A stretch of 61,828 nucleotides of DNA, filler included. It is 4 parts of 4 records of this genome, joined end to end, with 100 filler letters (N's around TTAATTAATTAA, not from the genome) between each part and the next. Parts side by side here need not be neighbours in the genome. Positions count along the whole stretch, not along the records: positions 37,443 to 54,069 come from DRR723986_3158; 3 more parts are not named here. The stretch is one strand, 5' to 3'. The position numbers were made by a program, and so were the translations under genes. Every line of letters begins with the position of its first letter. Positions within the stretch are counted from its first letter, which is position 1. Of this stretch, positions 37,443 to 54,069 are shown one piece after another. The notes beneath the pieces are model-generated. The model made no database searches. It worked only from the letters and a program-made list of their open reading frames with translations, and was not told the DNA's origin.

Positions 37443-37443
37443 C

Positions 37444-39285
37444 ATGGCCGAGATGCACCCGATCCTGTGGACCAGGATCGCCGACCGGCGCCTCAGCCAT
37501 CCCCATGTCAAGGTTGCCGTGCTTTCCACCTTCGAACATCGCAGCTTCGATCTGGCGGACATTCCCGGCGTATTCGTTCCCCAGACGGACCTGATCATCG
37601 CCAATTATATTGCGAACCACATCATCCAGTCCGGCGCGGTGAACGAGGAGTTCGTGTCAAACCACGTCAATTTCCGGAAGGGCGCACAGGACATCGGCTA
37701 TGGCTTGCGACCGGAAAATCCGCTTGAAGCCGCTGCAGCGAATGCCGGCAGCGGCGATTCCGAGCCGATGTCTCTCGAGGAATTCGCCGAATTCGTGAAA
37801 CCCTATACTCTGGATTTTGCAGCGGAGAAGTCCGGAGTTTCAAGGGAGCGGCTTCAGCAGATCGCTGAGCTGTACGCAGATCCGGACACCAAGGTGATGT
37901 CCCTTTGGACCATGGGCGTCAACCAGCATACCCGCGGTGTGTGGATGAACAACCTCATCTACAATATCCACCTGTTGACCGGTAAAATTGCCCAGCCCGG
38001 CAATTCCCCCTTTTCCCTGACCGGCCAGCCGTCTGCCTGCGGCACCGCCCGCGAAGTCGGCACCTTCGCTCACCGCCTGCCTGCCGACCTCGTGGTTTCA
38101 AATCCGGAGCACCGGGCAACAGCCGAAAAGATCTGGAAACTGCCGGCAGGAACCGTTCCTGAATGGATCGGTGCACATGCCGTTCTGCAGAACCGGAAAC
38201 TCAAGGACGGCGAAATCAACTGCTACTGGGTGCAGGTCAACAACAACATGCAGGCCGCCCCGAACATGATGGAAGAAGGCCTGCCCGGATATCGCAATCC
38301 GGAAAACTTCATCGTCGTTTCCGATGCCTACCCAACTGTGACGGCAGAAGCCGCCGACCTTGTGCTGCCAACCGCAATGTGGGTGGAAAAGGAAGGTGCC
38401 TACGGCAACGCCGAGCGCCGCACCCAGTTCTGGCACCAGCTCGTCGACGCACCGGAAGGGGCGATGTCCGACCTGTGGCAGCTGGTTGAATTTTCCAAAC
38501 GTTTCACAACAGACGAAGTCTGGCCGCCCGAGCTTCTGGCCGACAATCCCGATTACAAGGGAAAGACGCTGTACGAAGTTCTATTCGAAAACGGCAATGT
38601 CAACGCCTTCCCCAACAGCGAACGGGCGGAAGACTACGAGAACCGCGAATCCGACGAGTTCGGCTTCTACATCCAGAAAGGCCTGTTTGAGGAATATGCC
38701 CAGTTCGGCCGCGGACATGGCCACGACCTGGCGGATTTCGACACCTACCACCAGGTGCGCGGGCTCCGTTGGCCCGTGGTGGACGGCAAGGAAACCCGCT
38801 GGCGCTACAACGGCAAATACGACCCTTATGTGAAAGAGGGAGCGGCGTTCGACTTCTATGGGAAACCGGACGGCAAGGCTGTTGCCTTCGCCTTGCCCTT
38901 TGAACCGCCCGCGGAAAGCCCGGATGAGGAGTATCCCTTCTGGCTGTCCACCGGCCGGGTTCTGGAGCACTGGCACTCCGGATCGATGACGCAGCGCGTA
39001 CCTGAACTCTACAAGGCCGTGCCCGATGCCCTCTGCTACATGCATCCGGACGATGCCGAGGCTCTAGGCCTGAGGCGCGGTGCGGAAGTGCGCATCAAAT
39101 CCAGACGTGGGGAAATTCTCACCCGCGTCGAAACCAGAGGCCGCAACAAACCGCCCAAGGGGCTGATTTTCGTGCCCTGGTTCGATGCCCGCCAGTTGAT
39201 CAACAAGGTCACGCTGGACGCGACCGATCCGCTGTCGAAGCAGACCGATTTCAAGAAATGCGCCGTGCGCGTAGAAGCAGTGTGA
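37444..39285 (+). CDS. napA: Periplasmic nitrate reductase catalytic subunit (5'-truncated)
   Basis: [48 protein letters not shown] and QTDFKKCAV. Confidence 0.97.
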
Positions 39286-39293
39286 GGTGAGCC

Positions 39294-39764
39294 ATGAAAC
39301 GCTTTGCAATCGGCCTTGCCTGCGCCGCCCTGTTGGTTGCCGCAGCTGCCGCAGCCGCCCAGGAACACATCGCCACCATGCGCCCCGCAACGCCGTTGGC
39401 GGAAAACGGGACGCCTGCCCCGATGCCAAAGCCGGTGAACTCCGACATTCGCCAGGTGCGGAACTATCCCGAGCAGCCACCGCTTATCCCTCACACGATC
39501 GAGGGCTATCAGATCGACAAGAACTCCAACAAGTGCCTGAGCTGTCATTCCCGTACAGCCATTGAAGTCAGCCAGGCGCCAATGGTGTCGATCACGCATT
39601 TCATGAACCGGGACAACCAGTTCCTGGCGTCCGTCACACCCCGGCGGTACTTCTGCAATCAGTGCCATGTGCCGCAGACCGACGCCCGGCCTCTGGTCGA
39701 GAACGACTTTGTCGATGTCGATGAAGTGCTCGAATATGTGAAATCCAAAGAGGGGGCCAAATGA
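39294..39764 (+). CDS. napB: Periplasmic nitrate reductase diheme cytochrome c subunit
   Basis: Signal peptide, QPPLIPH, and two CxxCH motifs (CLSCH, CNQCH). Confidence 0.96.
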
Positions 39765-40411
39765 TGCTGGCCTTCCTCAAAAGGCTCTGGACCACCATCC
39801 GCCGCCCGAGCGTGCACTACAGCCTCGGCTTTCTGACCCTCGGCGGCTTCATCATGGGCATAATTTTCTGGGGTGGTTTCAACACCGCGCTGGAGTTGAC
39901 CAATACCGAGAAGTTCTGCACGGGCTGTCACGAGATGCGTGACAACGTCTTTGCCGAGCTTAAAACGACAATCCACTACTCCAACCGCTCGGGCGTGAGA
40001 GCCACGTGCCCGGATTGTCATGTCCCCCATGAATGGACAGACAAGATCGCCCGCAAGATGCAGGCCTCAAAAGAGGTCTGGGGCAAGATCTTCGGGACGA
40101 TCAATACGCGGGAAAAGTTTCTGGAACACCGGCTTGAACTGGCCCAGCACGAATGGGCCCGGCTCAAGGCGAACAATTCTCTGGAATGCCGCAACTGCCA
40201 TTCCGCCGATTCCATGGACATAACCCGTCAGAGCGGAAGGGCCTCGGAGGCGCACCAACGCTTCCTGTTCACGGGTGAAAAGACCTGCATCGATTGCCAC
40301 AAGGGCATTGCGCATCGCTTGCCGGACATGTCCCAGTCGGCATGGCACGGGGAAAAACCCGAAAAAATGCTGAAGGAAGCCACCGCGTTTCTGGCAACAC
40401 GGCAAGATTGA
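39761..40411 (+). CDS. napC: NapC/NirT tetraheme cytochrome c
   Basis: TM anchor and four CxxCH motifs (CTGCH, CPDCH, CRNCH, CIDCH); ATGA overlap with napB. Confidence 0.96.
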
Positions 40412-40429
40412 TAAATCACACGTCGAAAC

Positions 40430-40459
40430 AAAAAGGCTGGCCTACAAGCCAGCCTTTTT
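40430..40459. terminator. Bidirectional terminator between napC and the CBS gene
   Basis: AAAAAGGCTGGC-ctacaa-GCCAGCCTTTTT. Confidence 0.85.
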
Positions 40460-40463
40460 CACG

Positions 40464-40895
40464 TCAGGCCATCGTAATGTAGCTGCGCATCTGCTCGGCT
40501 TCGAGTTCAACCTGCGCAATCTTGAACTTCACGACGTCGCCGATGGAGATCACACCGGTCAGCTTGCCGTCCTTCACGACCGGCATATGGCGGAACCTGC
40601 CCTGTGTCATGCGAGCCATGACTTCGTTGATGTTGTTCTCTTCGGAGCAGGTAACCACGTTCTTGGTCATGACACCGGAAACCGGTGTTTTCAGCGCCGA
40701 CACGCCTTGCGTACCGACCACGCGAACGATGTCCCGCTCTGACACAATGCCGTCAACGGCACCTTCCTTGTCGGAAACGACCACGGCACCGATCTTGTGT
40801 TTTGCCAGGGTTTCACAAATTTCGCTGAGCAACGCGTCGCTGCGCGCTGTGATAATATCGTGGCCTTTCCCACTCAGGATAGCGGCTACGGTCAT
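40464..40895 (-). CDS. CBS-pair domain protein
   Basis: GIVSERDIV, RFRHMPVV and GVISIGDVVK; GGAGG RBS. Confidence 0.92.
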   Translation of the reverse strand: MTVAAILSGKGHDIITARSDALLSEICETLAKHKIGAVVVSDKEGAVDGIVSERDIVRVVGTQGVSALKTPVSGVMTKNVVTCSEENNINEVMARMTQGRFRHMPVVKDGKLTGVISIGDVVKFKIAQVELEAEQMRSYITMA

Positions 40896-41175
40896 TAAAT
40901 CACCTCCCATGGCATCAATCGGTCCGTTTTACCGGACCAGATCAACCGACGCTCAATCGGAAGCGATCAAACGTCAATAGTTGATCGACCTTAATGTAGT
41001 CTGCCAGCCGGTCTCCGGAAGGAGATGTTCCAGCTGCTCGACCACTTTCGCACCGACTGGGGCCGGACGTCCATTCGAATCCGACAGGACGACCTCCAGT
41101 CGTCAGGTATCATGGCAAAAAAATCAGATCGCGCAAACTGTTGACCTTGCGTCTTGAAGGTACTTTCGCTTCGCG

Positions 41176-41964
41176 TCAGGAATTCCGCCGCTGCGGCACG
41201 GGGTCAAACAGCGGAAACAGGGCAAGTCCGGCGACAAATCCACCAATATGAGCTTGCCAGGCAACACTTGCCGGCTGTCCCGCAACGGGACCGCTCATCA
41301 GGCCGAAGAACAGGTTGAGCCCGAACCATACCGCGACAAAAACCAGAACCTGTTGATTGCGAAGGCATTCCGCAAGCGGCTGCGCCGGTACGAAATAGGC
41401 TGTCGGATCGTTGCTGCGGATCGCACCCAGCGGGCCACCACGCTCGAAAACGAAACGAATGGCCGCAGCCATCTGGCCGGAAATGGCGGCGGATGCGCCG
41501 ATCATCGGCGCCCCTTCCCCCCAGTGGGTGGCAAGATGAGCCAGCGCCCCGCCAACGGAACAGGCCGCCGAAAACAGCAGAAATCGACCTACGCCAAACC
41601 GCCTGGCAACCGCACTGCCGAAAATCGCCATCCAGAGCAGGTTGAAGATGATGTGCATGGCGCCACCATGCAGCAGGCTGTAAGTGACGAAGGCCCAGAG
41701 GCTGGAGAGAAGATCAAAAGACGGCAGACTGCCGAGATAGGCATATTTTACCGGCCAGAATGCAAAAAGTTCGATGATCAGATTGTCCAGGTTCGCCGGA
41801 AGGATCATCACACGCAGAACGTGGATCGCAATCAGGATACCGCCAAGCCAGACGATGATCCCGGGCAGATTGAACACGGGCGGACCGGACGGCCGCTGGG
41901 GAGGTTGTTCCTTCTGGGCTTTTTCGCGCCGGGCGCGTTCTTCATCAATGCGGTAAACGTTCAT
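41176..41964 (-). CDS. Rhomboid intramembrane serine protease
   Basis: HGGAMHIIFN, GASAA (catalytic Ser) and WQAHIGG (catalytic His). Confidence 0.93.
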   Translation of the reverse strand: MNVYRIDEERARREKAQKEQPPQRPSGPPVFNLPGIIVWLGGILIAIHVLRVMILPANLDNLIIELFAFWPVKYAYLGSLPSFDLLSSLWAFVTYSLLHGGAMHIIFNLLWMAIFGSAVARRFGVGRFLLFSAACSVGGALAHLATHWGEGAPMIGASAAISGQMAAAIRFVFERGGPLGAIRSNDPTAYFVPAQPLAECLRNQQVLVFVAVWFGLNLFFGLMSGPVAGQPASVAWQAHIGGFVAGLALFPLFDPVPQRRNS

Positions 41965-42094
41965 GGACCCTCTGCCTTTCCTGTCTTTCTTCTAAGCCAG
42001 ATCGAAGACAAAACAAGAGTGGTTCGACCGCCAGAACAAGCGAAACCGGGAAATAGTGAATTCGACTTCTCCGGTCACAATCCCCAAAAAGCCT

Positions 42095-42137
42095 GAAAAT
42101 ACAAAGCGCCGGCCACCTAAAGGTGACCAGCGCTTTG
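42095..42137 (-). terminator. Intrinsic terminator with no annotated upstream gene
   Basis: Minus strand CAAAGCGCTGGTCACC-ttta-GGTGGCCGGCGCTTTG-TATTTTC. Confidence 0.8.
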
Positions 42138-42300
42138 CGATGCCCCCCAAAACCGGTCGCGTCCCCACGACGCCCGTTCAGGACAGTTGTTCACTCCGGC
42201 CGGCGCTTGTTTTACCGAGGCAGCTCTTGGCGGCTGTACCTATCGGCCCGCGGCCTGACCTGCAACAACAGGTTCCTCCCACCCGCCGTCTATGTGAACT
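42095..42300 (-). ncRNA. Putative G-rich small RNA (or leader RNA) ending in a strong terminator
   Basis: A 16-bp hairpin (42102-42137) whose G-U pairs and U tail work only on the minus strand. G-rich tracts GGCGGGUGGGAGG and GUGGGGACGCGACCGGUUUUGGGGGGC lie upstream. The 5' end is a guess. Confidence 0.5.
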
Positions 42301-42398
42301 GAGTGTTAAGCTGACAGGCAACCGCCCCTAATACAAGCTTTACCGAAAATTAACCTTAATTTCTGACCGCCACTCAAGCTTTCACGCCAACAAGCACT

Positions 42399-42414
42399 TG
42401 GCACGCGCCCTGCT
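42399..42414 (+). promoter_or_regulatory. Sigma-54 (-24/-12) promoter of the PAS gene
   Basis: TGGCACGcgccCTGCT: GG at 42400-42401 and GC at 42412-42413 with exact 10-nt spacing; one mismatch to TGGCACG-N4-TTGCW. Confidence 0.75.
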
Positions 42415-42519
42415 TTGTAAAGGTCAAAAACCAACAGGGAAGCATTTTCGTCCCGTTTTGAAACAAGAACTGTCTTGAGACGAAACACCGGGCGCAAGAA
42501 TGGCAAAGAGGCGAACCAG

Positions 42520-43167
42520 ATGAAACACGGCGTAACGCAAACTCTTTACAACTACTGGGACAATCTTCGCGGCGCCCGTCCTGCACCGAACCGCAGCGAA
42601 GTCGATCCGGGTGAGATCCGCGGTCTTCTTGGTGACACCTTCATTCTGGAGACGAACGGTTCCAGGGACGTGCGCTATCGCCTCGCCGGTACACGTCTGT
42701 GTTCCGCCCATTGCCGGGAACTCAAGGGCCGCAACTTCCTTCGCGGCTGGAGCGTGAAAGACCGTGAAGCCCTGGAAAGCCTGATCGCTGCCATCACCGA
42801 AGATGCGGCCGCGGCCGTGATCGGCATCAACGGCCATACGGAACGCGGACAGATCCTGCAGATGGAAATGCTGCTGGTACCGCTGAATGTTCCAGGTGAA
42901 GGCAGGATCCGTGTCCTGGGAAGCTGCACTCCGATGGAAAAACCCTATTGGATCGGCCTGCATCCCATTTTGAGCCAGTCGATCAGCAGCCTGCGCCTGG
43001 TCTGGCCGGACGAGCGTCCCTATTTCGTGGATTCCCCTGCTTCCACGCTCAACCCGATCCTGCCGCGTTTTACCGCCGAGGGCATCGCCATGCCGACACC
43101 GCCCCTGCCGAGCGGTGCGGAGCGCAAGGTCGGACATCTGACCGTCTATTCCGGCGGCAAGTCCTGA
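42520..43167 (+). CDS. PAS domain protein (PAS_5/DUF1457 type)
   Basis: LYNYWDNLRG, PNRSEVDP, DTFILE, YRLAGTRLC and EMLLVPL. Confidence 0.88.
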   Translation: MKHGVTQTLYNYWDNLRGARPAPNRSEVDPGEIRGLLGDTFILETNGSRDVRYRLAGTRLCSAHCRELKGRNFLRGWSVKDREALESLIAAITEDAAAAVIGINGHTERGQILQMEMLLVPLNVPGEGRIRVLGSCTPMEKPYWIGLHPILSQSISSLRLVWPDERPYFVDSPASTLNPILPRFTAEGIAMPTPPLPSGAERKVGHLTVYSGGKS

Positions 43168-43535
43168 CCCGCACAACATAGCAAGTCTGGTAACATCCCT
43201 GTTCACCTGCGAAATCGGGCCGGCCGAGAATCAGCTGGCCCGAATTCATGTTCGGCACCGGCTGGTTTGCAGCCTCTATTCAGCTGAAAAGAAGTCCTTC
43301 CTTCCGGATTTTTACTCTCGCGTTATTGTACTTTCTCGCCAGAGAGCGCTCGAATTCCGAACATCACGGCCATACCCGCATTTTTATCGATCACAAGTCT
43401 GGACCTGCGCCCCATCTGAGCTACACTCTTACACATCGTTAACCCCAGCTACCTAAAGTGCTTTGAAAGACGTCTTTTGAATCGCATCTCAGCCGGGGAC
43501 AATGCGATTTGCGCACCGTTTTGGATAGAACAGGC

Positions 43536-44171
43536 ATGAGCGCCGGAGTGGCAACAGCAACAGAAGGAAGCAGATCGCTTCAAGTCACTGACCGCCGGCG
43601 CCATCAACGGGTCCAGGTCAATATACTGGGCCGCTTCATGCTTGAAGATCGGCGCGAATATCCTTGTCAGGTTATCGACATGTCGCCTGGCGGCATGGCC
43701 ATGATTACACCGGTCACCGGCAGGGTTGGCGAACGCGTGATTGCCTATCTTGACCACCTGAGCCGCGTCGAAGGCAGGATTTCCCGCCTGATCGATGGTG
43801 GCTTTGCGGTTGAACTGCGCAATACGGTCCGCAAACGCGACAAGATCGCCAATGTTTTGACGTGGCTTGCGAACCGGGACGAACTCAATCTTCCCGAAGA
43901 CCGCCGCCACGACCGCTTCGTGCCCAAAAACCCGATGACGAAGATGATCCTGCCGGACGGTTCGGAACATGTCTGCCGCATCATCGACGTATCCCTGTCC
44001 GGCGCGGCCATCGCCACGGACATCGTCCCGGAGATGGGCGACGCCATCACGCTCGGCAAGATGCATGCACGTGTCATTCGTCGCATCGAAGGTGGCATAG
44101 CCGTCGAATTTGCTGCTGTTCAAAGCCGCGAATTGCTGGAACATCACATATCGGCACCAGAGGAAAGCTGA
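43536..44171 (+). CDS. Tandem PilZ-domain protein
   Basis: Two RxxxR + DxSxxG pairs: RRHQR/DMSPGG and RRHDR/DVSLSG. Confidence 0.9.
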   Translation: MSAGVATATEGSRSLQVTDRRRHQRVQVNILGRFMLEDRREYPCQVIDMSPGGMAMITPVTGRVGERVIAYLDHLSRVEGRISRLIDGGFAVELRNTVRKRDKIANVLTWLANRDELNLPEDRRHDRFVPKNPMTKMILPDGSEHVCRIIDVSLSGAAIATDIVPEMGDAITLGKMHARVIRRIEGGIAVEFAAVQSRELLEHHISAPEES

Positions 44172-44215
44172 CTTTAGCTTTCTCATCAATCGCAAGTGCT
44201 TAGAACCCTTCAGAC

Positions 44216-44241
44216 AGGCCCGGCTTTTTGCCGGGTCTTTT
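44216..44241 (+). terminator. Terminator after the PilZ gene
   Basis: AGGCCCGGC-ttttt-GCCGGGTCT-TTT. Confidence 0.65.
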
Positions 44242-44611
44242 CGTTTCTGCGCAATTTTCCGGGTAGTCGCGTTTCTTTTCTGGTGGCCAGATCCAAAAAA
44301 ATCAAAAAACTTTCATGCCCTTTTCTCACCCTCGAGGACGGGCACAAGGCCCGCTCCAGACCGAAAACCAGGCGATTGAAAACCGATTTCGCACCACTCG
44401 AAAAACACCAATTTCTCGCTAATTCAATGACTTCTGGAGGATGCATCAAATTTTACGAAAATTTTCCTCCAACTTGAATTAAAGTAAATTCAAATAACGA
44501 TAAAAATAAACTCAAACACACATAAAATACAAATACAGTTTTACTTTGGAGATTTTCTCCAAGTAAAAATCATTGAGTCATCGTTGCGTCAGCCTTGGGG
44601 AGGGCGTTACG

Positions 44612-45226
44612 ATGAAATTACTTCACAGAACTCTACTCGCATCTGCAATGTTGCTGTCTTGCACCGTCATGGGATCGGTTGCACAGGCAGAACCCGGCCG
44701 CTTCATGGACATGCAAATGGTTGTCAAGGCACCCGTCGGCTATGACCAGTTCTGCCGTGACAACGTCTCGGCTTGTCCGAAGGAAACATACAAGCCGGTT
44801 GTCGTGAAGCTGGACGAAGCGCGCTGGAACGAACTCATTGCAATCAACAAGGAAGTCAATCGCCGGATTCATCCTATGACCGACCAGGACCTGTTCGGCC
44901 AGGAAGAATACTGGACCTATCCGGTAAACGGATACGGTGACTGCGAAGAATACGTCCTTGAAAAGCAGCGGGTCCTGATAGAAGCCGGCTGGCCGAAGAG
45001 CGCCCTTCTGATCACTGTTGCAAAAGATACCCAGAACTCGGGTCATGCCGTTCTGACGGTACGTACGGACCATGGCGACATGATCCTCGACAACCAGATC
45101 GAGGCGGTGCTGCCCTGGTATTCGACACCCTACCGTTACATCAAGCGTCAGTCCGCCAGCTCGCCCGTGCAGTGGACAGGTATTGCAGACACGCGCGTGA
45201 CGACTGTCAGTAGCGTGTCCAACTAG
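44612..45226 (+). CDS. Periplasmic transglutaminase-like cysteine peptidase (BTLCP, peptidase C93, LapG-like)
   Basis: Signal peptide; Cys-His-Asp triad in GDCEEY, HAVL and ILDN. Confidence 0.93.
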   Translation: MKLLHRTLLASAMLLSCTVMGSVAQAEPGRFMDMQMVVKAPVGYDQFCRDNVSACPKETYKPVVVKLDEARWNELIAINKEVNRRIHPMTDQDLFGQEEYWTYPVNGYGDCEEYVLEKQRVLIEAGWPKSALLITVAKDTQNSGHAVLTVRTDHGDMILDNQIEAVLPWYSTPYRYIKRQSASSPVQWTGIADTRVTTVSSVSN

Positions 45227-45239
45227 GATTGGGATTGGT

Positions 45240-45351
45240 CCGGCTTCAGCCGGCCTCTAGGACGATCCGGTCGCGTCCCCACCCTCCCCATCCCTACCAC
45301 GACCGGGTCCAGGGAACCGGCCCGCCCCCCGCAGGCCGGTTCCCGCCTTTT
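45240..45351 (+). ncRNA. Structured C-rich 3'-UTR element / putative 3'-derived sRNA
   Basis: Hairpin 45264-45309 with a 26-nt C-rich loop, then terminator-like hairpin GGGAACCGGCC-cgccccccgca-GGCCGGTTCCC (45312-45344) followed by GCCTTTT. Confidence 0.55.
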
Positions 45352-45401
45352 CAGGCCCAGCTCATTCGGGATCGGGTCGAAGGGGTCAAGATCAAAGCGG
45401 G

Positions 45402-45929
45402 TCAGAGTTCCCGCAGGCCGGCCTTGAAGCGGCGCCAGTTGCGCACATATCCGTCGGCGGAATTCGCAATCCCGTTCGCCGCTTCCAGCGGCAACGTTTT
45501 CACGACCTTTCCTGGCACGCCCACCACAAGAGAATTGTCCGGAATTTCCTTGCCTTCGGCAATAAGGGCATTGGCACCAATGATACAGTTGGAGCCGATG
45601 ACAGCGCCGTTCAGAATTGTCGCGCCCATGCCCACCAGCGAATTGTCCTTGATCGTACAGCCATGCAGGATTGCCTTGTGGCCGATCGTGCAGTTGGCGC
45701 CGATGGTCAGCGGGTAACCCACGTCCGTATGAAAGACGCAGCCGTCCTGGACGTTGGAGCGCATGCCGACGGTAATCGGCTCGTTATCACCACGCAGGAC
45801 CGCGTTGAACCAGACGCTTGCGGCTTCCTGCAGAATGATATCGCCAATCAGCGTCGCATTCGGTGCGATCCAGTATTCTCCGTTTTCCGGAAAAACGGGC
45901 GTACGTCCATCAAGAGCAAAGACCGGCAT
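45402..45929 (-). CDS. Gamma carbonic anhydrase family protein (YrdA-like)
   Basis: [27 protein letters not shown] and hexapeptide repeats. Confidence 0.93.
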
Positions 45930-45935
45930 GAGACC

Positions 45936-46262
45936 TCAGGTGTAACCAATCATGATCAGGGCAACGTTGATCACCATAACACCGGAACACATGCTCCACA
46001 TGCCGGCAATCGTCGAAGACGCGACCAGCCAACCCAACGGCCGCTTTTCGATCCTGCGTCCGCGAATGGCATTGCGCATGATGATGAAGGGTCCAGCGAA
46101 CACGCAGACAAAAACGCCGGCGATAAACGACAGGATGCCCTCTCCGTCAAAGGCGAACTTCGGCGGCTGCTTCGTGATCAGCTGATAAAGGCTGCCCAGC
46201 ACACCGGACGCAACAAATCCGGCGCATGCGATATATCCAACGATTAGAAGATTGAACAGCAC
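45936..46262 (-). CDS. Small three-TM membrane protein (DUF6949-like)
   Basis: GSLYQLIT...FAGPFIIMRNA...WSMCSG pattern; family name is recalled, not searched. Confidence 0.7.
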   Translation of the reverse strand: MLFNLLIVGYIACAGFVASGVLGSLYQLITKQPPKFAFDGEGILSFIAGVFVCVFAGPFIIMRNAIRGRRIEKRPLGWLVASSTIAGMWSMCSGVMVINVALIMIGYT

Positions 46263-46266
46263 GCCC

Positions 46267-46283
46267 GTTAACCCCTTGTTAAC
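46267..46283. promoter_or_regulatory. Perfect CtrA box (TTAA-N7-TTAAC on both strands)
   Basis: GTTAAccccttgTTAAC; a second near-consensus site, TTAAgaattcgTAAA, lies at 46303-46317. Confidence 0.75.
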
Positions 46284-46445
46284 TCTTTCGCACGGAAAGT
46301 GATTAAGAATTCGTAAAGGGTCAAGAGCAAAGACTGTGCCGAAACGGCAAATGAGCGAAATCCCCTCAATTGAGCCACTTCGAGCAGTATCAACGCCTTC
46401 CCCAAGCGGGACACCTGTGCCGTTTCAGGACAACCTGTCCCATAT

Positions 46446-47174
46446 ATGTGCACAGCCAATCAAGGGACTGAAGTCGTGATACCTGTCTCCTTGCCAGGCC
46501 CGATCAGAACCGATCCCCGCCACTTCACCTGGCTGGCGTTGGCAATGTGTGTATTGGGCACGGCTCATGTTGGCGGGAAGATCTACTCCTGGTCATCCGG
46601 TTGGCCGATGGAGGCAGGCATCAGACAGGACCAGCCCGTCCGCTTTGCGGTTGGCACGACCCGCTTTGAGCTTCCCCTGAACATGATCGCGACGGCTTCG
46701 CAGAAACGGCAGGCCCTTGGTTCCGAAGCCGCGTTTGAAACACTTCGCCTGAACCTGCACTGGTCTTCCAGTGCCACGAAGAACAGCGATGCCGGATGGG
46801 ACACCCCTGCGACGATCCAGGTTGACCTTGAGAGCAATCCCGGCCGGGAGAGCCTGCGGGCAAGGCTTGATCCGTTCTACAGGCGTCTTGCACGCGGCGG
46901 CGAGATGAAGGGGCCTTCTGGACTGAAGGTGCTGAAATTGTCGGCGCGTGGCGCGCCTGCGACGGATCTCATCGTCTACGATCCAACCGTTCAAAACGGC
47001 TTCATCGCACGATGCCGCAAAGACAGCACTTCCGGAAAAGCCGGTTGCCACCGCGCCATCGTGTTCGCCTCGGGTCTGGAGCTGCGCTACAGCTTCGATC
47101 AATCGCTGCTGCCGGACTGGCGCCGTCTCGACGGCGACATCGTTGCCAGCATCGAAGGTTACCGGATGCAATGA
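46446..47174 (+). CDS. Hypothetical membrane-anchored periplasmic protein
   Basis: One N-terminal TM helix and a C-terminal FIARC...CHR...LRYSF segment; start uncertain. Confidence 0.7.
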   Translation: MCTANQGTEVVIPVSLPGPIRTDPRHFTWLALAMCVLGTAHVGGKIYSWSSGWPMEAGIRQDQPVRFAVGTTRFELPLNMIATASQKRQALGSEAAFETLRLNLHWSSSATKNSDAGWDTPATIQVDLESNPGRESLRARLDPFYRRLARGGEMKGPSGLKVLKLSARGAPATDLIVYDPTVQNGFIARCRKDSTSGKAGCHRAIVFASGLELRYSFDQSLLPDWRRLDGDIVASIEGYRMQ

Positions 47175-47201
47175 CCTGACTTGAGCGGATGGCGGAGAAA
47201 T

Positions 47202-47235
47202 GAAAAAGGCGACTCACCAGAGGAGCCGCCTTTTC
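47202..47235. terminator. Bidirectional terminator
   Basis: GAAAAAGGCGACTC-accagag-GAGCCGCCTTTTC between convergent genes. Confidence 0.7.
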
Positions 47236-47260
47236 ACGTTACGATCGAAAAGTCTGAAAC

Positions 47261-47476
47261 TCAGACTTCGTCCAGATCAATTTCAAGGATTGCCATCTGG
47301 AAGTTCCAGCTCAGATCTTCATCCTCATCGTCCCGGAAGATGACACCGATGAATTCATCGCCGATGTAAACTTCAGCAGAGTCGTCCTTGCGCGGGCGGG
47401 CCTGCACCTTGATGGTCTTGTTCTCGAACTTCGAACGCAGATAGGCTTCGATCTTTCGGATTTCATCGGGTTTCAC
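47261..47476 (-). CDS. DUF3126 family protein
   Basis: DDSAEVYIGDEFIGV and SWNFQMAILEIDL; GTG start after a GGAG RBS. Confidence 0.88.
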   Translation of the reverse strand: MKPDEIRKIEAYLRSKFENKTIKVQARPRKDDSAEVYIGDEFIGVIFRDDEDEDLSWNFQMAILEIDLDEV

Positions 47477-47588
47477 GGCGCTCTCCTGTTCTTTGCCTTC
47501 AGCATCAATCTGGCGCGGACCCTACAGGAGCCAACGGAAATGCCAAAGCCTTTCCGCAAGCTTTCCCCGTCTTCCTGAAACCGGAATT

Positions 47589-48425
47589 TCAATTCGTCTG
47601 GCCGGCGTCTTCACCGAGCAGCTGATTCATGCTGCGGGCCGGTTCTGCGCACCCTGCCTTGCCGACGATCTTGGCCGGAACCCCGGCAACCGTCGTGTTT
47701 GCAGGCACGTCCTGAAGCACCACGGACCCCGACGCAATGCGCGAGCAATGTCCGATTTCCAGGTTGCCGAGCACCTTGGCTCCCGCCCCCAGCAAGACAC
47801 CGCGGCGGATCTTCGGATGGCGGTCACCATCTTCCTTGCCGGTGCCGCCAAGGGTGACGCCCTGCAGGATCGAGACATCGTCCTCGATCACCGCGGTTCC
47901 GCCAACAACAATGCCGGTACCGTGGTCGATGAAGATACCGCGCCCGACAGGAACTGCCGGATGGATGTCGATCTGAAAAACTTCCGAGCTGCGGCTTTGC
48001 AGATAAAGGGCAAAATCCTTCCGGCCACGACGCCACAGCCAGTTTGCCAGCCGGTGCGTCTGCAGGCCATGGAAGCCCTTGAAGTAAAGGACCGGCTCCA
48101 GGAAACGGAAGCATGCCGGATCGCGGTCGAAGACGGCAACGATGTCGACCCGGAAAATCTTGGCCAGCTCCGGCTCGTCTGCCAGGGCTTCAAGATAGGT
48201 TTGCCGGATCAATGATGCGGAAACAATGTCCCGGCCCAGCCGGTCGCCAAGGCGATGAACGACGGCCTCTTCCAGGCTGTCATGGTTCAGAACCGTTTCG
48301 TAGACGAAGGACGACAGGGCCGGCTCTGCCGCGACCATCGCTTGTGCTTCATCCCTCAGTTGATGCCAGACCGGATCATGGGTCGGAACTTCTTTCAAAC
48401 CGGTCTTGCTGATCGGTGCCGACAT
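47589..48425 (-). CDS. cysE: Serine O-acetyltransferase
   Basis: RDPAC, YFKGFH, DIHPA, IDHGTG and TLGGTGKEDGDRHPK. Confidence 0.97.
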   Translation of the reverse strand: MSAPISKTGLKEVPTHDPVWHQLRDEAQAMVAAEPALSSFVYETVLNHDSLEEAVVHRLGDRLGRDIVSASLIRQTYLEALADEPELAKIFRVDIVAVFDRDPACFRFLEPVLYFKGFHGLQTHRLANWLWRRGRKDFALYLQSRSSEVFQIDIHPAVPVGRGIFIDHGTGIVVGGTAVIEDDVSILQGVTLGGTGKEDGDRHPKIRRGVLLGAGAKVLGNLEIGHCSRIASGSVVLQDVPANTTVAGVPAKIVGKAGCAEPARSMNQLLGEDAGQTN

Positions 48426-48591
48426 GGCCTGTCTCCTTTTCAAGCCGTCACGAGTGGTCCTTAAAATAGGACTGTCGTCTGATATTCCCAAATCAAACTT
48501 CCTGATATCAGATATGACCGTTTCGAATGAACCCCGATACCTGAAGATTTTCAGCATCTTGCTAACTGAAATCGCAATTTGAGGTTAAATC

Positions 48592-49404
48592 ATGCCAACA
48601 CAAACGTCCCAATCAGCCCCTTCCGGCAACCCGATGGTGATCCGCAACGGTCAGATTGCAGAGCTTGTGTTGAATGCGCCCGACAGAAAAAACGCGCTGC
48701 CTCTTGCGGCATGGCAGGCAATTCCTGGTCTTCTGGCAGAACTGGCACGGGATCCGGACCTGCGCGTCTGCATCGTGCGCGGTGCCGGTGGCAAGAGCTT
48801 TTGCGCGGGCGCTGACATATCGGAATTCGAAGCAATCCGCTCTACGCCGGAAGCCGCCAAGAGATACGATGACATAAATGTTGCCGCCTTCAAGGCGCTT
48901 AAGGCGCTGCCTGTCCCGGTCATTGCGGCAATTGAAGGCCCCTGCCTTGGCGGCGGCCTGGGCCTTGCGCTCGCCTGCGATCTGCGCATTGCAGCTCGTT
49001 CGGCCTTTTTCGCCATTCCTGCAGCGAGACTCGGTCTTGCCTATCCGCCCGAAGCGCTCGGGGATCTGCTGGAGGCCGTTTCACCATCCAACGCCAAGAG
49101 ATTGCTGTTTTCGGCCGAGCGCCTGACGGCCGAAAAGGCTCTGGACATGGGCCTTGTCAATGAAGTGGTGGATGACAGGGATCTGAACCAGCACATCAAC
49201 GCGCTGAGCAAGGCACTCTGCGCCAATGCGCCCTTGTCACTGAAGGCAGCCAAGCAAGCCATCAATCGCCTCGCCCAGCCCGGCAGTCAGGCGGACGCAA
49301 CGGCTGACCTTGCAAATGCGCAGGTCTGTATCGACAGTGCCGACTACCGCGAAGGCTGCAGGGCCTTTCTGGAAAAGAGATCGCCGGTGTTCACTGGCGT
49401 CTGA
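48592..49404 (+). CDS. Enoyl-CoA hydratase/isomerase family protein
   Basis: FCAGADISEF, CLGGGLGLALACDLR and AFLEKRSPVF. Confidence 0.93.
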   Translation: MPTQTSQSAPSGNPMVIRNGQIAELVLNAPDRKNALPLAAWQAIPGLLAELARDPDLRVCIVRGAGGKSFCAGADISEFEAIRSTPEAAKRYDDINVAAFKALKALPVPVIAAIEGPCLGGGLGLALACDLRIAARSAFFAIPAARLGLAYPPEALGDLLEAVSPSNAKRLLFSAERLTAEKALDMGLVNEVVDDRDLNQHINALSKALCANAPLSLKAAKQAINRLAQPGSQADATADLANAQVCIDSADYREGCRAFLEKRSPVFTGV

Positions 49405-49535
49405 CAAGATCGCAAGCCAAGCTCCGAAGCTGAATCAACCTCTCAACCACTTCTGCCAGCAAGTTGAAACGACTCCCGTTTTCACTTCACAGCGAACACC
49501 CGAACACGTCACGACGACTTGTCGGCAAACCTGCC

Positions 49536-50420
49536 TCAGGCCATCGCGGCATCGGTTTTGAGTGCGATCAGGAAGTCCTCTACCGCCCCAGCAAAAACGT
49601 CATTGCGATCACCGGCAACCATGTGTCCGGCATCACGGATATCGGTGAATTTCGAGTGAGGCACCAGCGCCTGAAACTCGCGAACATGGTCCATGGACAC
49701 CAATTCGGAGTTCTGCCCCCGGATCAGGAGAACAGGCACGGAAAGATTGCCCGCCGCAGCCAGCATGCGCTCTTGCGACTCCACCGCCCTGTCTTCGTCC
49801 TGATGATGCTTTGACTTCAGGAAAGCCGGGTCCCAATGCCAGCGGTAGCGGCCATCTGCATGGAGGCGAAGGTTCTTTGAGAGGCCGGACAGGTCCTTGG
49901 GCCGCGAGCGGTTGGGCAGATAGCGGGCGATCGCATCAGCGGCCTCTTCCACATCGGCAAAGCCGTCATCGACCCTGTCTCCCATGAAGCCCAGGATCTT
50001 GGCGACACCACCCATGTCGATCCGCGGCGTGATGTCCACCAGAACCAGCGCGGAAAGACCGCCCCTGTTTTCCTGTCCCTCCGCCAGCATACCGGCAAAG
50101 CCGCCAAGCGACGCACCAACGACAACCGGGTTCGCCTTGTGCAAGGCCTCAACCTGACTGGTGACAGCCACGAGATCCCTGGCGAAATCGTCGAATGTAT
50201 AGTTTCCCGAGGCAACCCAATCGCTTTCGCCATGTCCGCGCTGGTCCAGTGAATAGACCGGGTGCCCGAGATCCGCGATCCTGCGTGCAGCACCGTCCCA
50301 GGAGTGCCGGGTTTGCCCGCCGCCGTGGAGCATGATCACAGGTAAGTCCCCTACCCCGTAACGGTCTGCCACCAGACCGTTCTTTTCCGCGCCCTGGAAT
50401 TCAACACGCTTCGGACCCAT
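49536..50420 (-). CDS. Alpha/beta fold hydrolase
   Basis: HGGGQ, DQRGHG, GASLGG nucleophile elbow and AGHMV. Confidence 0.92.
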   Translation of the reverse strand: MGPKRVEFQGAEKNGLVADRYGVGDLPVIMLHGGGQTRHSWDGAARRIADLGHPVYSLDQRGHGESDWVASGNYTFDDFARDLVAVTSQVEALHKANPVVVGASLGGFAGMLAEGQENRGGLSALVLVDITPRIDMGGVAKILGFMGDRVDDGFADVEEAADAIARYLPNRSRPKDLSGLSKNLRLHADGRYRWHWDPAFLKSKHHQDEDRAVESQERMLAAAGNLSVPVLLIRGQNSELVSMDHVREFQALVPHSKFTDIRDAGHMVAGDRNDVFAGAVEDFLIALKTDAAMA

Positions 50421-50485
50421 GCAACCTCCCTCGATACCCGATCAGCACACCACAGCGCGGCTTGCGCCTCCGGTGGCGTCAGGCC

Positions 50486-51241
50486 TTACGCTTCAATGTT
50501 GTTCAGGAACGCCAGAACGCCCTGCTTGTGCACCTTGTCGCCCACCGCAACCATGTGATCGCGGCCCGGGATCTCCAGAACTTCCGCGTGCGGAATCAAG
50601 GCCGCCAGCTTGTGCGGTGACCCGGCGATATCGTCCTTCGTACCGACGGCAATCAACACCGGACGTTCAATGCGCGCGACGTCTTCCTCGCTGATTTTCT
50701 GCCGCGAGGAGCGCATACAGGCCGCCAGCGCCCGGCGATCGGACCCTGTCTGCTCCGCAAAGGCCCTGAAGGCACGTCCAGTGCGATCGGAAATGTCCTG
50801 GATGCGGTCGGTCTCAAGGGCTGTCGCAATCGGCTCCGGATCTCCGATGCCGGAAATCATGCCGTAGCCCAGACCGCTGAAGATCGCGCGGCGCACCCTG
50901 CCCGGGTGATTGAGGGTCAGGAATGCCGAGATTCTTGCGCCCATCGAGTAGCCCATGACATCGGCACGTTCGATATCAAGATGGTCGAGCAGGCGTTTGG
51001 CATCTTCCGCCATCACCGGTGCACCATAAGCTGCCGGGTCGTAGAACTTCTGACTGTCGCCGTGGCCGCGATTGTCGATGGTAATCACGCGCCTGCCGTC
51101 GCCGACCAGCAAATCGACCCAACCTGGATACTGCCAGTTCACCTGCTTGTTGGACGCGAACCCGTGGATCAGCAGGATCGGGTCCCCCTCACCTTTATCC
51201 TCATAGGCGATCCTAACACCATCGAACTCGAACTGAGGCAT
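50486..51241 (-). CDS. Alpha/beta fold hydrolase
   Basis: IHGFAS, DNRGHG, GYSMG and RDHM. Confidence 0.92.
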   Translation of the reverse strand: MPQFEFDGVRIAYEDKGEGDPILLIHGFASNKQVNWQYPGWVDLLVGDGRRVITIDNRGHGDSQKFYDPAAYGAPVMAEDAKRLLDHLDIERADVMGYSMGARISAFLTLNHPGRVRRAIFSGLGYGMISGIGDPEPIATALETDRIQDISDRTGRAFRAFAEQTGSDRRALAACMRSSRQKISEEDVARIERPVLIAVGTKDDIAGSPHKLAALIPHAEVLEIPGRDHMVAVGDKVHKQGVLAFLNNIEA

Positions 51242-51455
51242 CTAAGACATTAACCCTTACGTAAACGGAAAACACAATTTCACGGTAGAGTAAGGGGTTT
51301 GGGCAGCGAAGGTAAAGCCCATTTCCGGCTCCAGGTGGAGCCTTGCTGCGGTTGTGGATCGCAGATTCCGGGTCTACCCATATATTTTACAAATGGATAT
51401 GGTCCGGAAAATTTGCTATCGGGGTCCAACCCTTTAGAGACAGAGGAATTTCAAC

Positions 51456-51701
51456 ATGGCGGATCATGTCGTCCCGCATTTCCAGAACTCCAGCGGACAC
51501 GATTCGGTGGCGATCGGCGCACGGGAATTCATGTGCATCGGCGCAAATCCTCCGTTTGATCATCCCCATGTCTTCCTCGACATGGGTAGTGAGAACGAAG
51601 TGGTCTGCCCCTATTGCTCCACACTCTACAAGTTCGACAAGACACTGCAGGCAACCGAATCCTCGCCTTCAGACTGCACCTGGACGCCTGTAGCGGCGTA
51701 A
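51456..51701 (+). CDS. zf-CHCC zinc-finger protein (NDUFS6-like)
   Basis: C...HPHVFLD...CPYC; GAGGA RBS. Confidence 0.9.
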   Translation: MADHVVPHFQNSSGHDSVAIGAREFMCIGANPPFDHPHVFLDMGSENEVVCPYCSTLYKFDKTLQATESSPSDCTWTPVAA

Positions 51702-51716
51702 CTTATTGGTCTGTCC

Positions 51717-52919
51717 ATGAGCACGAATGGTGAGACCGGTCTTCCGATCATTATTGCCGGCGCAGGGATTGGCGGTCTAACGGCCGCCCTTTGCCTGCAT
51801 GCTCAAGGGCATGAAATTGTCCTCATGGACAGGGCTCGGCAACTTTCGGAAGTTGGCGCCGGCCTTCAGCTTTCTCCCAACGCCTGCTCGGTACTCGATC
51901 AGCTTGGCTTGCTGGAAGACCTCACCCCACATGCCTACGCCCCGGATTTTGTGAAAATCTGCTCGGCAAAATCCGGCGAAGAGCTCGCCAGGGTGACGAT
52001 GGGCACTTTCCTGAAGGAGCGACACGGCTATCCTTTCTGGGAAATCCACCGGGCAGATCTCCAGCGCGTGCTTCTGGAGAAGGTTCAGGCCAGTGACGGT
52101 ATTTCCCTCCGCCTTTCAAGCGAAGTTATCGATCTGGAATCCTCGCCCTACGAGCACCTGACCTGCGTGTTCCAGGACAATGAGATCTCGGGAAAACTTC
52201 GTTGCAGGGCTCTCATTGGCGCTGATGGGGTCTGGTCCAGGACCAGGCGGCTCATTCCCGGACATGAAGACGCTCATTACAGCGGCCAGGTTGCCTACAG
52301 GGCCACGGTCCCGATCGATGCGGTGCCCGAACGCTGGCGCCGCGATGCCGGCCTCTGGTTCCACAAGAGCGCCCATCTGGTGCATTACCCGGTTCGTGGC
52401 GGTCGGGAACTGAACATCGTCGGGCTGGTAGAAGAGGCCTGGGAGGACGAGACCTGGTCTGCAAAGGCCAACAAGGAAACCCTTCTGAAGATTTTCCGGG
52501 ATTGGCCAACGGAAGTTCGCAATCTTCTCACGATCCCTGACGCCTGGTTAAAATGGGCCCTGTGCAGCGTGGACGCTGGAGGCCCCTGGACCCATGGCAA
52601 TATTGCGCTGATCGGTGATGCCGCCCATGCGATGCTGCCGTTCATGGCGCAGGGGGCGGCAATGTCCATTGAGGACGCAGCGATCCTGGCTGAGCATATG
52701 CCTCAGGACGTCGAAAACATCCCCGCTGCTTTCAGGGCGTTTGAGCGGCAACGCAAACAACGGGTACAGCACATTCAGGGTATTTCTTTCAGAAATGCCC
52801 GCACATTCCACTACGGCGGCGCGATGGCCTTCGCCCGCGACACCGTTTTGCGCCTGTCGACACCAACCAGTCTGGCTGCCAGGTTTGACGATATTTATGG
52901 CTGGACTCCCGGGCAATAG
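51717..52919 (+). CDS. FAD-dependent monooxygenase (salicylate hydroxylase-like)
   Basis: GAGIGG, EVGAGLQL, GADGVWS and GDAAHAMLPFMAQGA. Confidence 0.92.
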   Translation: MSTNGETGLPIIIAGAGIGGLTAALCLHAQGHEIVLMDRARQLSEVGAGLQLSPNACSVLDQLGLLEDLTPHAYAPDFVKICSAKSGEELARVTMGTFLKERHGYPFWEIHRADLQRVLLEKVQASDGISLRLSSEVIDLESSPYEHLTCVFQDNEISGKLRCRALIGADGVWSRTRRLIPGHEDAHYSGQVAYRATVPIDAVPERWRRDAGLWFHKSAHLVHYPVRGGRELNIVGLVEEAWEDETWSAKANKETLLKIFRDWPTEVRNLLTIPDAWLKWALCSVDAGGPWTHGNIALIGDAAHAMLPFMAQGAAMSIEDAAILAEHMPQDVENIPAAFRAFERQRKQRVQHIQGISFRNARTFHYGGAMAFARDTVLRLSTPTSLAARFDDIYGWTPGQ

Positions 52920-52992
52920 ACCCGCTTTCGCTTGAGCCGGGCGTCAAGCTGGGATAAAGCCAATCCCCATCCATGTGTCAGGGAGTGTGAAG

Positions 52993-53736
52993 ATGACCGG
53001 TCAGAGGGCAGATGACGTTGTAACCGCTGCGTTTCTGGTCATCGGGGATGAGATCCTGTCCGGCCGCACGAAGGACAAGAACATCGGCTTCCTCGCCGAC
53101 TACCTGACTGCGCTTGGCATTGACCTGAAGGAAGTGCGCATTGTTCCGGACGAAAAGCCGGAAATCATCGGTGCCGTCAATGCGCTGCGGGCGCGCTACG
53201 ACTACGTGTTCACGTCCGGCGGCATTGGCCCGACACACGACGACATCACGGCCGAAAGCATCGCCGACGCCTTTGGTGTTGCGCTGAACCTTGATCCGCG
53301 CGCTGTCGCAATCATGGAACCCCACTACCCGCCGGGCCAATTCACCCCGGCTCGCCAGCGTATGGCACGAATTCCCGAAGGCGCGGACCTTATCGAAAAC
53401 AAGGTTTCGAAGGCACCGGGCTTCCGGATCGAGAACGTCCACGTGATGGCAGGCGTGCCGTCGATCATGCAGGCGATGATGGACGCGCTTGCGCCTTCGC
53501 TGAAGACTGGCAAGAAGATGCTGTCGGAAACAGTTGCCGCAGACATGCCTGAAAGCCGCATCGCCGAGCGCCTCGCTGCCATTCAGGACGCGCATCCGCA
53601 AACCTTGATTGGCTCTTATCCGAGAGCGACGGACGGCAAGTTCACCACACAAATCGTGATCCGCTCGCGGGACGAGGCGATACTGATGGCCGCGGTCAGG
53701 GATGTCGCGGAAGCTGTCGCCGACCTGTCGGGATAA
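52993..53736 (+). CDS. CinA N-terminal-like (COG1058) molybdopterin-binding family protein
   Basis: IGDEILSG, SGGIGPTHDDIT and AGVP; no CinA deamidase C-domain. Confidence 0.9.
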   Translation: MTGQRADDVVTAAFLVIGDEILSGRTKDKNIGFLADYLTALGIDLKEVRIVPDEKPEIIGAVNALRARYDYVFTSGGIGPTHDDITAESIADAFGVALNLDPRAVAIMEPHYPPGQFTPARQRMARIPEGADLIENKVSKAPGFRIENVHVMAGVPSIMQAMMDALAPSLKTGKKMLSETVAADMPESRIAERLAAIQDAHPQTLIGSYPRATDGKFTTQIVIRSRDEAILMAAVRDVAEAVADLSG

Positions 53737-53751
53737 TCTGAAGGACTAGAA

Positions 53752-54069
53752 ATGGAAAACCCAGCCCAAGACAAAGCATTCCCCGTTTCCTGGGACATGT
53801 TTCACAGAGATTCCCGCGCACTAGCCTGGCGCCTTTCTAGCGAAGGCGAGTGGAAGGCGATCGTCTGCATCACCCGTGGCGGACTGGTACCGGCCGGGAT
53901 CGTTGCGCGTGAGCTTGGCATCCGCACCATCGAAACCGTCTGCATTGCGTCCTATCACGACTACGACAGTCAGGGTTCGCTCAAGGTCATCAAGCCGATC
54001 GACCCGAAGGTCATCGACCTGGAAGACGGTGAAGGCAGCGGTGTTCTGGTGATCGACGATCTGGTCGAC
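53752..54069 (+). CDS. gpt: Xanthine phosphoribosyltransferase (3'-truncated)
   Basis: [16 protein letters not shown] and VLVIDDLVD (PRPP motif). Confidence 0.93.

Follow-up and report, generated by a model that had tools for sequence, protein, structure and literature searches.

A candidate G-rich RNA and the C-rich 3′ end of a BTLCP gene: a probable sponge-type RNA pair conserved in Roseibium and other Hyphomicrobiales

Why should a 16-nucleotide (nt) sequence occur twice, letter for letter, at a locus where its two copies appear to lie in RNAs made from opposite strands? The question arises in a 61,828-nt stretch of DNA (the window, along whose whole length all positions are counted), within the part from 37,443 to 54,069 (DRR723986_3158). 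The order along this locus is rhomboid (−), a candidate G-rich RNA that we call A (−), PAS_5 (+), PilZ (+), the peptidase gene BTLCP (+), a C-rich RNA element that we call B (+) and hexapeptide transferase (−). Alignments and folds support A and B as a pair of conserved RNA elements, one from each strand, and show their complementarity to persist, with co-variation, at family and order distance. They probably form a pair of the small RNA (sRNA) and sponge type, and an icaR-like contact of BTLCP's 3′ untranslated region (3′ UTR) with its Shine–Dalgarno sequence (SD) is possible. A scan of species genomes with the B loop (62 contigs, one match each) gives the host group as Roseibium/Labrenzia with Pannonibacter and Stappia.

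The initial annotation had reported the 16-mer as identical at 42153–42168 and 45267–45282, with the first copy in a minus-strand RNA and the second at the 3′ end of the BTLCP message. The repeat is confirmed, and terminator polarity agrees with the proposed strands. The copies lie on the same DNA strand with 0 mismatches; no further match exists in the 61,828 bases at up to two mismatches, against a shuffle mean of 0.03, and 0 of 100 shuffles reach two. G001, the nearest genome compared (41% of sampled 31-mers in common with the window), contains two exact copies, both syntenic, and one 2-mismatch match, where a reversed-pattern control gives 12 matches. The repeat is therefore local, and not the dispersed element that the annotation had named as a possible objection, because the window holds no other copy and the only exact copies in G001 are syntenic. 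Copy 2 begins 41 nt past the BTLCP stop, inside the 3′ UTR and ahead of a plus-strand terminator hairpin (45312–45344). Copy 1 stands 16 nt from a 17-base-pair (bp) hairpin (about 42103–42136) whose U-rich tail exists only on the minus strand. A simple terminator scan picked up neither hairpin. The parts of B are as follows.

45230–45351, plus strand: RNA element B, the BTLCP 3′ UTR (folds, covariation, conservation)
45237–45255, plus strand: hairpin 1 of B (fold, alignment)
45264–45309, plus strand: hairpin 2 of B (fold, alignment)
45267–45282, plus strand: target of A, the 3′ part of the 5′ arm of hairpin 2 and the first loop bases (best non-self partner in the window)
45273–45299, plus strand: invariant C-rich loop of hairpin 2, 26 nt, holding the anti-SD 9-mer 45282–45290 (61 sequences)
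45312–45344, plus strand: terminator hairpin of B with a C run in its loop, followed by a U tail (fold, alignment)

Across 61 Stappiaceae sequences the loop of hairpin 2, with its repeated UCCCC-type motifs, is fixed save for one position in one sequence, and most of the hairpin 2 stem is likewise unchanged; hairpins 1 and 3 maintain their fold by compensatory change, seen in 14 of 26 predicted pairs. B was present in 37 of 37 genus genomes searched at 88–98% nucleotide identity, above the conservation of its own gene, whose protein shows 63–92% amino-acid identity in Stappiaceae (median 77%; 59 loci, match covering at least 70%). A covariance model built from hairpins 2 and 3 matched 48 of the order's 151 sampled genomes (36 of its 101 genera), once each and over the full length, whereas a class-wide sample of one genome per family (n = 151) gave only G001 and one weak match (E = 0.009); among 149 genomes outside the order there was 1 weak match. 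BTLCP lies directly upstream in 39 of 40 order-level loci, and we accordingly take B to be the BTLCP 3′ UTR. Conservation of the 3′ UTR above the coding sequence, with the mRNA's own terminator at its end, is a feature of 3′UTR-derived sRNAs and is found here; B may also be released as a 3′-derived small RNA. A conserved GGGAUU immediately 5′ of hairpin 1 resembles an RNase E site.

The other partner is the candidate RNA A, of which the following parts can be recognized.

42092–42342, minus strand: candidate G-rich RNA A, in the rhomboid–PAS intergenic region (3′ end firm, from the terminator; 5′ end uncertain)
42092–42136, minus strand: Rho-independent terminator of A, a 17-bp hairpin at about 42103–42136 with a U-rich tail at 42092–42102 (fold z = −5.1)
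42142–42148, minus strand: G6C run, complementary to the C run in the terminator loop of B (in 14 of 32 A sequences)
42153–42168, minus strand: core complementary to B, 16 nt, of which 14 (42155–42168) are conserved (alignment)
42189–42299, minus strand: predicted long-range helix, 42294–42299 with 42189–42194 (weak)
42273–42284, minus strand: SD-like G-rich loop, GGGUGGGAGGAA on the RNA (predicted hairpin loop, 13 of 13 aligned Roseibium sequences)

The core followed by a minus-strand terminator occurs in 32 of the 34 Stappiaceae loci that contain the rhomboid–PAS intergenic region (the window counted). Across the 32 Stappiaceae sequences and 12 order-level loci, the letters of the terminator stem have turned over, but its fold persists and so does the U tail on the minus strand. 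We infer the strand and the ends of A. In the 13 Roseibium sequences of the window's clade, conserved blocks and a consensus fold extend to about 42345. In these sequences and in the window's own fold, the core is predicted to sit within a small hairpin that exposes a GGGG loop, and some Stappiaceae carry GGGGAG directly 5′ of the core. The long-range helix comprises six pairs, mostly unchanged in the 13 sequences, two of them with one compensatory case each; the GGGUGGGAGGAA loop is degenerate in more distant Roseibium. A small open reading frame (ORF) after this loop was considered and rejected, its start codon varying between UUG, GUG, AUG and none. Indels of 1–2 nt, which shift the frame between close relatives in the alignment as read by eye, also argue against coding.

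In Pannonibacter (L066, L089) the rhomboid–PAS intergenic region contains inserted palindromes, rich in G/C, that follow the pattern CCCCTCCCC...GGGGAGGGG.

Does complementarity survive where the sequences change? Within Stappiaceae the B 14-mer is invariant, and of the A core cells set against it 425 of 448 are Watson–Crick, 4 are G-U and 19 are mismatched; 20 of 32 A:B pairs are perfect across the 14 nt, and positions 4–9 of B are paired in every one. In other families the B core differs, yet a complementary core directly precedes a minus-strand terminator between rhomboid and PAS/PilZ, a syntenic placement found in 12 of 12 order-level loci examined, from eight families besides the window's own. 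Here GUCACG in B faces CGUGAC or UGUGAC in A (f26, f46, f42 and f16), GUCGAG faces CUCGAC (f28), and three C in B are matched by three G in A (f50), a compensatory indel. Taken genome by genome, G064 contains an A-variant 13-mer exactly twice, 2.7 kilobases (kb) apart; in G066 the two copies of a 14-mer both carry a different substitution; G085, G132, G162, G119 and G052 pair through a common double change, with or without one G-U; and in G089 both runs are one letter shorter, by a C in B and by a G in A. Independent compensatory events number at least three, two substitutions and one indel, and with the 32 of 34 Stappiaceae loci they bear out the conservation and co-variation that the annotation had proposed as a check. 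These counts were taken from alignment columns in Stappiaceae and from curated pairs at order level; an automated core table mis-registered cores and missed terminators. A candidate A in one further locus (L213) was discarded as a chance match in GC-rich, coding-looking sequence.

Whole-length duplex folding ignores intramolecular structure and returns meaningless long duplexes, and was replaced by seed scans. Among 30,896 segments on both strands of the window, A is the top non-self partner of a 33-nt B seed (−43.0 versus −37.5 kcal/mol for the next), and the duplexes predicted in order-level loci range from −27 to −47 kcal/mol. The cognate B seed pairs better with the minus than with the plus strand of the syntenic intergenic region in 23 of 29 order-level loci (means −28.6 versus −24.1 kcal/mol, Wilcoxon p = 0.0013, a p-value overstated because the genomes are related). 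The annotation had also proposed that the adjacent G run of A pairs with the second hairpin of its 3′ element (45324–45339, in the B terminator). Such a pairing can be drawn (G6C with GC6, CCGG with CCGG), but the G run is not general, being present in 14 of 32 Stappiaceae sequences, shorter or interrupted in 4 and absent from 14, and half of its proposed partner sits inside the terminator stem of B. A second helix, over the CUCCCC motif of B, is predicted in f28, f46, f16 and f51. Extended complementarity that is conserved or co-varies is expected of sRNA–sponge pairs, and A and B possess it; we consider it likely that their pairing is functional.

What, then, might the C-rich loop do when A is elsewhere? 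The relevant features lie at the start of BTLCP.

44579–44588 and 44605–44614, plus strand: arms of the BTLCP 5′ UTR hairpin, the 3′ arm including the ATG, around a loop (44589–44604) with the G-rich SD
44596–44604, plus strand: extended SD, 9 nt complementary to the B loop (part of a 12-mer that stands unchanged at 55 of 57 Stappiaceae loci)

The 5′ UTR hairpin has covariation support, with 94.5% of cells paired and five of nine pairs compensatory, a level reached in 0 of 500 shuffles; in the window's own fold the SD's last two G may also be drawn into the stem. As the annotation had noted, the 9-mer in the B loop (45282–45290) is the exact reverse complement of 44596–44604. A 3′ UTR motif complementary to the SD of its own message is the arrangement known from icaR, and here both sides are conserved in the family. 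G001 contains the 9-mer 20 times, two of them at the BTLCP/B locus, and only three of the other 18 precede the start codon of an ORF of at least 60 amino acids. Cognate B loops bind BTLCP initiation regions at −20.8 kcal/mol, against −16.1 kcal/mol for the hexapeptide gene (p = 0.011, 19 genomes), a comparison biased by the choice of purine-rich starts; across 30 order genomes the energy difference between cognate and non-cognate loop and ribosome-binding site (RBS) is small (p = 0.013). Loop and RBS show no covariation, and for that reason this leg is only plausible; that B contacts the BTLCP SD seems to us possible, at slightly under even chances. Several of the remaining G001 copies (L231, L233, L236, L237, L241) are explained by palindromes of the CCCCTCCCC...GGGGAGGGG type, and L237 and L241 have common flanks, as in a small repeat family. 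The segment just 5′ of the hairpin (44546–44569) reads TTGGAGA-TTT-TCTCCAA, a near-perfect palindrome with a conserved GTAAAAA after it, and looks like an operator overlapping the BTLCP promoter.

Taken together, these elements suggest a mechanism. A would be an independently terminated G-rich RNA transcribed from the opposite strand about 3 kb upstream of B, with a 3′ domain that presents GGGG in a small hairpin loop beside the terminator. First contact with B would be loop to loop, GGGG with CCCC, and would grow into a duplex of 14–16 bp as both short stems open; in several lineages the CUCCCC anti-SD motif of B would be masked too, by a second G-rich block of A. A would thereby inactivate the C-rich loop in the manner of a sponge or anti-sRNA. 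A free B loop could pair with G-rich SD regions, its own message being the first candidate, where the SD is displayed in a hairpin loop whose stem holds the AUG; contact with B would then lower BTLCP translation, as in icaR. The release of B, the direction of each regulatory effect and the B-to-SD contact we infer, and we hold the picture as a whole, with A:B pairing, A as sponge or anti-sRNA and the B loop acting on its own SD, to be somewhat better than an even bet. A bolder version is doubtful: an order-wide circuit of three RNAs in which the 3′ UTR loop shuts the SD loop and the G-rich RNA titrates that loop to turn translation on, the G-rich RNA being itself under cell-cycle control (through a CtrA-type box) or sigma-54-linked control and so representing the kind of CtrA/SciP-dependent 'translational regulator X' postulated for HvyA (PMC4241560).

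Several observations weigh against this proposal. Two Roseibium species (L080, L096) lack A at the syntenic place, the A:B duplex of Pannonibacter has 3–4 mismatches in 14, and detection outside the family, which is heuristic, recovered a clear A-like element at only 12 of 40 order-level loci; 17 of 29 loci reach −27 kcal/mol or better, with 10 of 29 doing so in the plus-strand control. At the SD, complementary runs of cognate B loop and RBS are no longer than non-cognate ones (5.87 versus 5.80, permutation p = 0.39, 30 order genomes). Outside the family the complement falls to 4–9 nt, as expected of any C-rich loop against a G-rich SD, and the RBS is not among the 15 best window partners of the B loop by naive duplex energy. 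A sigma-70 scan of 41800–45600 returned no promoter, and none could be assigned to A. The RNA evidence consists of assembled contigs from four runs, which carry no strand, end or level information; in X3 all of the region examined lies on one 37-kb contig, a pattern expected of DNA, and the contigs of three studies begin at 44600–44611, inside the BTLCP 5′ UTR hairpin, and because of these starts do not show its 5′ arm. Finally, joint change in two direct DNA repeats would also fit a common sequence-specific DNA-binding factor.

In the L096 and L080 genomes the A 13-mer occurs at another locus (L128 exact, L133 with one mismatch), where it is plus-sense and not A-like; it lies about 80 nt past a plus-strand terminator, beside a CAGCCTTGG string resembling the BTLCP SD loop.

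The last of the opposing points can be pressed further, the 16-mer being then a DNA-level feature, either one protein's binding site at both places or the remnant of a partial duplication, with no RNA–RNA function. The copies are direct repeats on one strand that change together, as co-evolving protein sites would. One copy, however, is inside a structured, invariant, transcribed element and the other abuts an opposite-strand terminator in nine families; one-sided differences that are tolerated include G-U-compatible transitions, which the identity of a DNA motif would not favour; several lineages extend the complementarity with different flanking sequence; the minus strand outperforms the plus in those 23 of 29 loci; and a remnant would not persist across an order. 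We regard this explanation as very improbable. In a second alternative, A would act only on the 3′ end of the BTLCP message, a duplex of 14–21 bp altering mRNA or 3′ UTR stability (for example, as a substrate for a double-strand RNase) or termination, with the complement between B loop and SD functionless. It accords with the fact that A:B covaries and B:SD does not, and with the presence of BTLCP before B in 39 of 40 order-level loci; it leaves unexplained why a 26-nt loop reaching far past the A site is invariant, and why the G-rich SD loop is invariant within a covarying hairpin. We think it unlikely, if less so than a DNA-level origin.

Returning to the sponge-type reading, how are the two elements embedded in their surroundings? 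The genes and promoter-like elements around them are as follows.

41176–41964, minus strand: rhomboid gene (domain search)
42350–42359, no strand assigned: conserved TTAACCTTAA box (TTAACCYTAA) between A and the PAS promoter (30 of 31 sequences)
42398–42415, plus strand: sigma-54-like −24/−12 element ahead of PAS_5 (conserved in 27 of 31 sequences, within the stretch examined)
42520–43167, plus strand: PAS_5 (PF07310) gene (domain search, E = 3e-37; ATG read from the sequence)
43536–44171, plus strand: PilZ-domain gene (domain search, E = 5e-18)
44612–45226, plus strand: BTLCP (PF06035, Peptidase_C93), a LapG/HvyA-type periplasmic cysteine peptidase (E = 1e-62)
45402–45929, minus strand: hexapeptide transferase gene (domain search)

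The PAS, PilZ and BTLCP genes named in the initial annotation are all recovered by these domain matches, BTLCP scoring 211 bits against a Pfam PF06035 gathering cut-off of 27; its start ATG is 44612–44614 and its stop TAG 45224–45226. Upstream of rhomboid lie a NapC/NirT tetrahaem cytochrome gene (39761–40411, plus) and a CBS-domain gene (40464–40910, minus). The annotation had named a sigma-54 promoter and a CtrA-like box at the locus. The sigma-54-like element before the PAS gene is conserved; a TTAA-N7 box exists on the minus strand and is restricted to sequences of the window's clade (10 of 31). Some 40 nt upstream of the sigma-54-like element, and like it conserved out to Pannonibacter, stands the TTAACCYTAA box, which may be part of the PAS gene's sigma-54 promoter instead of a promoter of A. 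A block of the PAS 5′ UTR (42393–42490) is conserved also in more distant Roseibium.

RNA contigs cover both the A and B regions and continue from the BTLCP coding sequence into B. The gap at 44199–44600, uncovered in three of the four runs, carries no evidential weight. In two studies, X12 and X5, contigs have one end at 42338 and 42344, which hints weakly at where the 5′ boundary of A may lie; from about 42340 they run unbroken through the rhomboid gene. A shares its strand with rhomboid, lies 130 nt upstream of that gene's start and adjoins it in 12 of 12 order-level loci examined. A could instead serve the rhomboid mRNA as its 5′ leader, with a terminator of the attenuator type; a small RNA released from B would then pair just upstream of this terminator and tune read-through into the rhomboid gene, making A a target and not a sponge. 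This conflicts with the conservation of a strong 17-bp U-tailed terminator and with a block (GGTGAAT, plus strand) conserved in most Roseibium at 42060–42080, between the A terminator and the rhomboid start, which by eye may be rhomboid's own promoter. No alternative anti-terminator pairing was spotted by eye, and contigs cannot reveal single transcripts. We rate the leader explanation as rather improbable, a little below an effect confined to the BTLCP 3′ end.

One RNA contig of X12 (677 nt) has at its end a B-like loop unlike the window's and resembling order-level B variants; it probably derives from another organism in that run, which may have a B homologue.

Is either element already known? 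Searches of Rfam, which the annotation had recommended, place A and B in no family at threshold. Atu_L6 (RF02505), a Rhizobiales sRNA family, matches A at 42092–42242 on the minus strand with 26.8 bits (E = 0.00035; gathering score 100), an alignment that rests on the A terminator and bypasses the conserved core through a 53-nt insertion. ar14 (RF02344), an alphaproteobacterial family of C-rich sRNAs whose members bear C-rich anti-SD loops, matches B at 45261–45353 on the plus strand with 10.8 bits (E = 5.3; gathering score 58.8), and a search of 41000–46500 gave nothing for ar14 at E up to 1. Both matches are weak, full-length and on the right strands, and far below the gathering scores. Nineteen order-level loci likewise matched no Rfam family at threshold except one tRNA. 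The annotation had recognized no described system of this layout; our literature search, which covered articles without their supplementary files (a possible place for the sRNA lists of rhizobial RNA-seq papers), found no description of the A/B pair either. It returned nothing on Atu_L6, nothing beyond incidental matches on Labrenzia/Roseibium sRNAs, and nothing tying hvyA or SMc00998 to an sRNA or 3′ UTR.

Separate parts of the arrangement do have counterparts. RsaI of Staphylococcus aureus reportedly binds C-rich sRNAs through its G-tracks (bioRxiv 10.1101/278127) and also regulates mRNAs under CcpA; it resembles A in that G-rich tracts of one RNA bind C-rich motifs of others, and differs in having neither locus linkage nor a 3′ UTR partner. 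In icaR of the same species, a C-rich 3′ UTR motif pairs with its own SD, blocking initiation and creating an RNase III substrate (PMC3868564). B shares with it a C-rich 3′ UTR motif complementary to the SD of its own mRNA, but belongs to another phylum; the BTLCP SD stands in a hairpin loop with the AUG, the 3′ element is order-wide, and the locus holds a separate G-rich RNA. The Bacillus subtilis RoxS, a C-rich sRNA, is counteracted by the sponge RosA (PMC8216469), and A and B are similar in that one RNA would pair with and counteract a C-rich regulatory RNA. RoxS is a free-standing sRNA and RosA is unlinked to it, whereas here the C-rich partner is an mRNA 3′ UTR and both elements flank one cluster. 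Within the alphaproteobacteria, CrfA of Caulobacter crescentus sponges the SisA–D sRNAs (PMC12559287), an sRNA-on-sRNA sponge to which we liken A/B by description and not by sequence. Caulobacter belongs to another order, and in the one-per-family sample the B model did not find B outside the order of the window.

What would such a pair mean for these bacteria? If our reading is right, A and B are two new RNA families, neither reaching threshold in Rfam 15, which roughly one in three of the Hyphomicrobiales/Rhizobiales genomes sampled would carry, linked to the conserved rhomboid–PAS_5–PilZ–BTLCP cluster. One alphaproteobacterial locus would then unite 3′ UTR-to-SD self-pairing with a dedicated RNA sponge, features so far found separately and mostly in Firmicutes. 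LapG-type BTLCPs are periplasmic proteases that control surface adhesins. The Caulobacter BTLCP HvyA controls capsule, and its translation is governed by a postulated factor 'X' that acts downstream of CtrA, SciP and MucR; SMc00998, the homologue in Sinorhizobium meliloti, carries a CtrA site and reaches its maximum in G1 (PMC4241560). The likeness is that of one alphaproteobacterial BTLCP to another, with orthology to HvyA or SMc00998 assumed nowhere here; that paper proposes no RNA (PMC4241560), and B was not found in our one-per-family sample of other orders. Since HvyA is under translational control that is still unexplained, the A/B pair would be a candidate for control of this kind in marine Roseibium, one that is concrete and can be mutated. 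The A:B pairing is open to direct test by a few compensatory mutations, and order-level homologues would extend this candidate control possibly to rhizobia.

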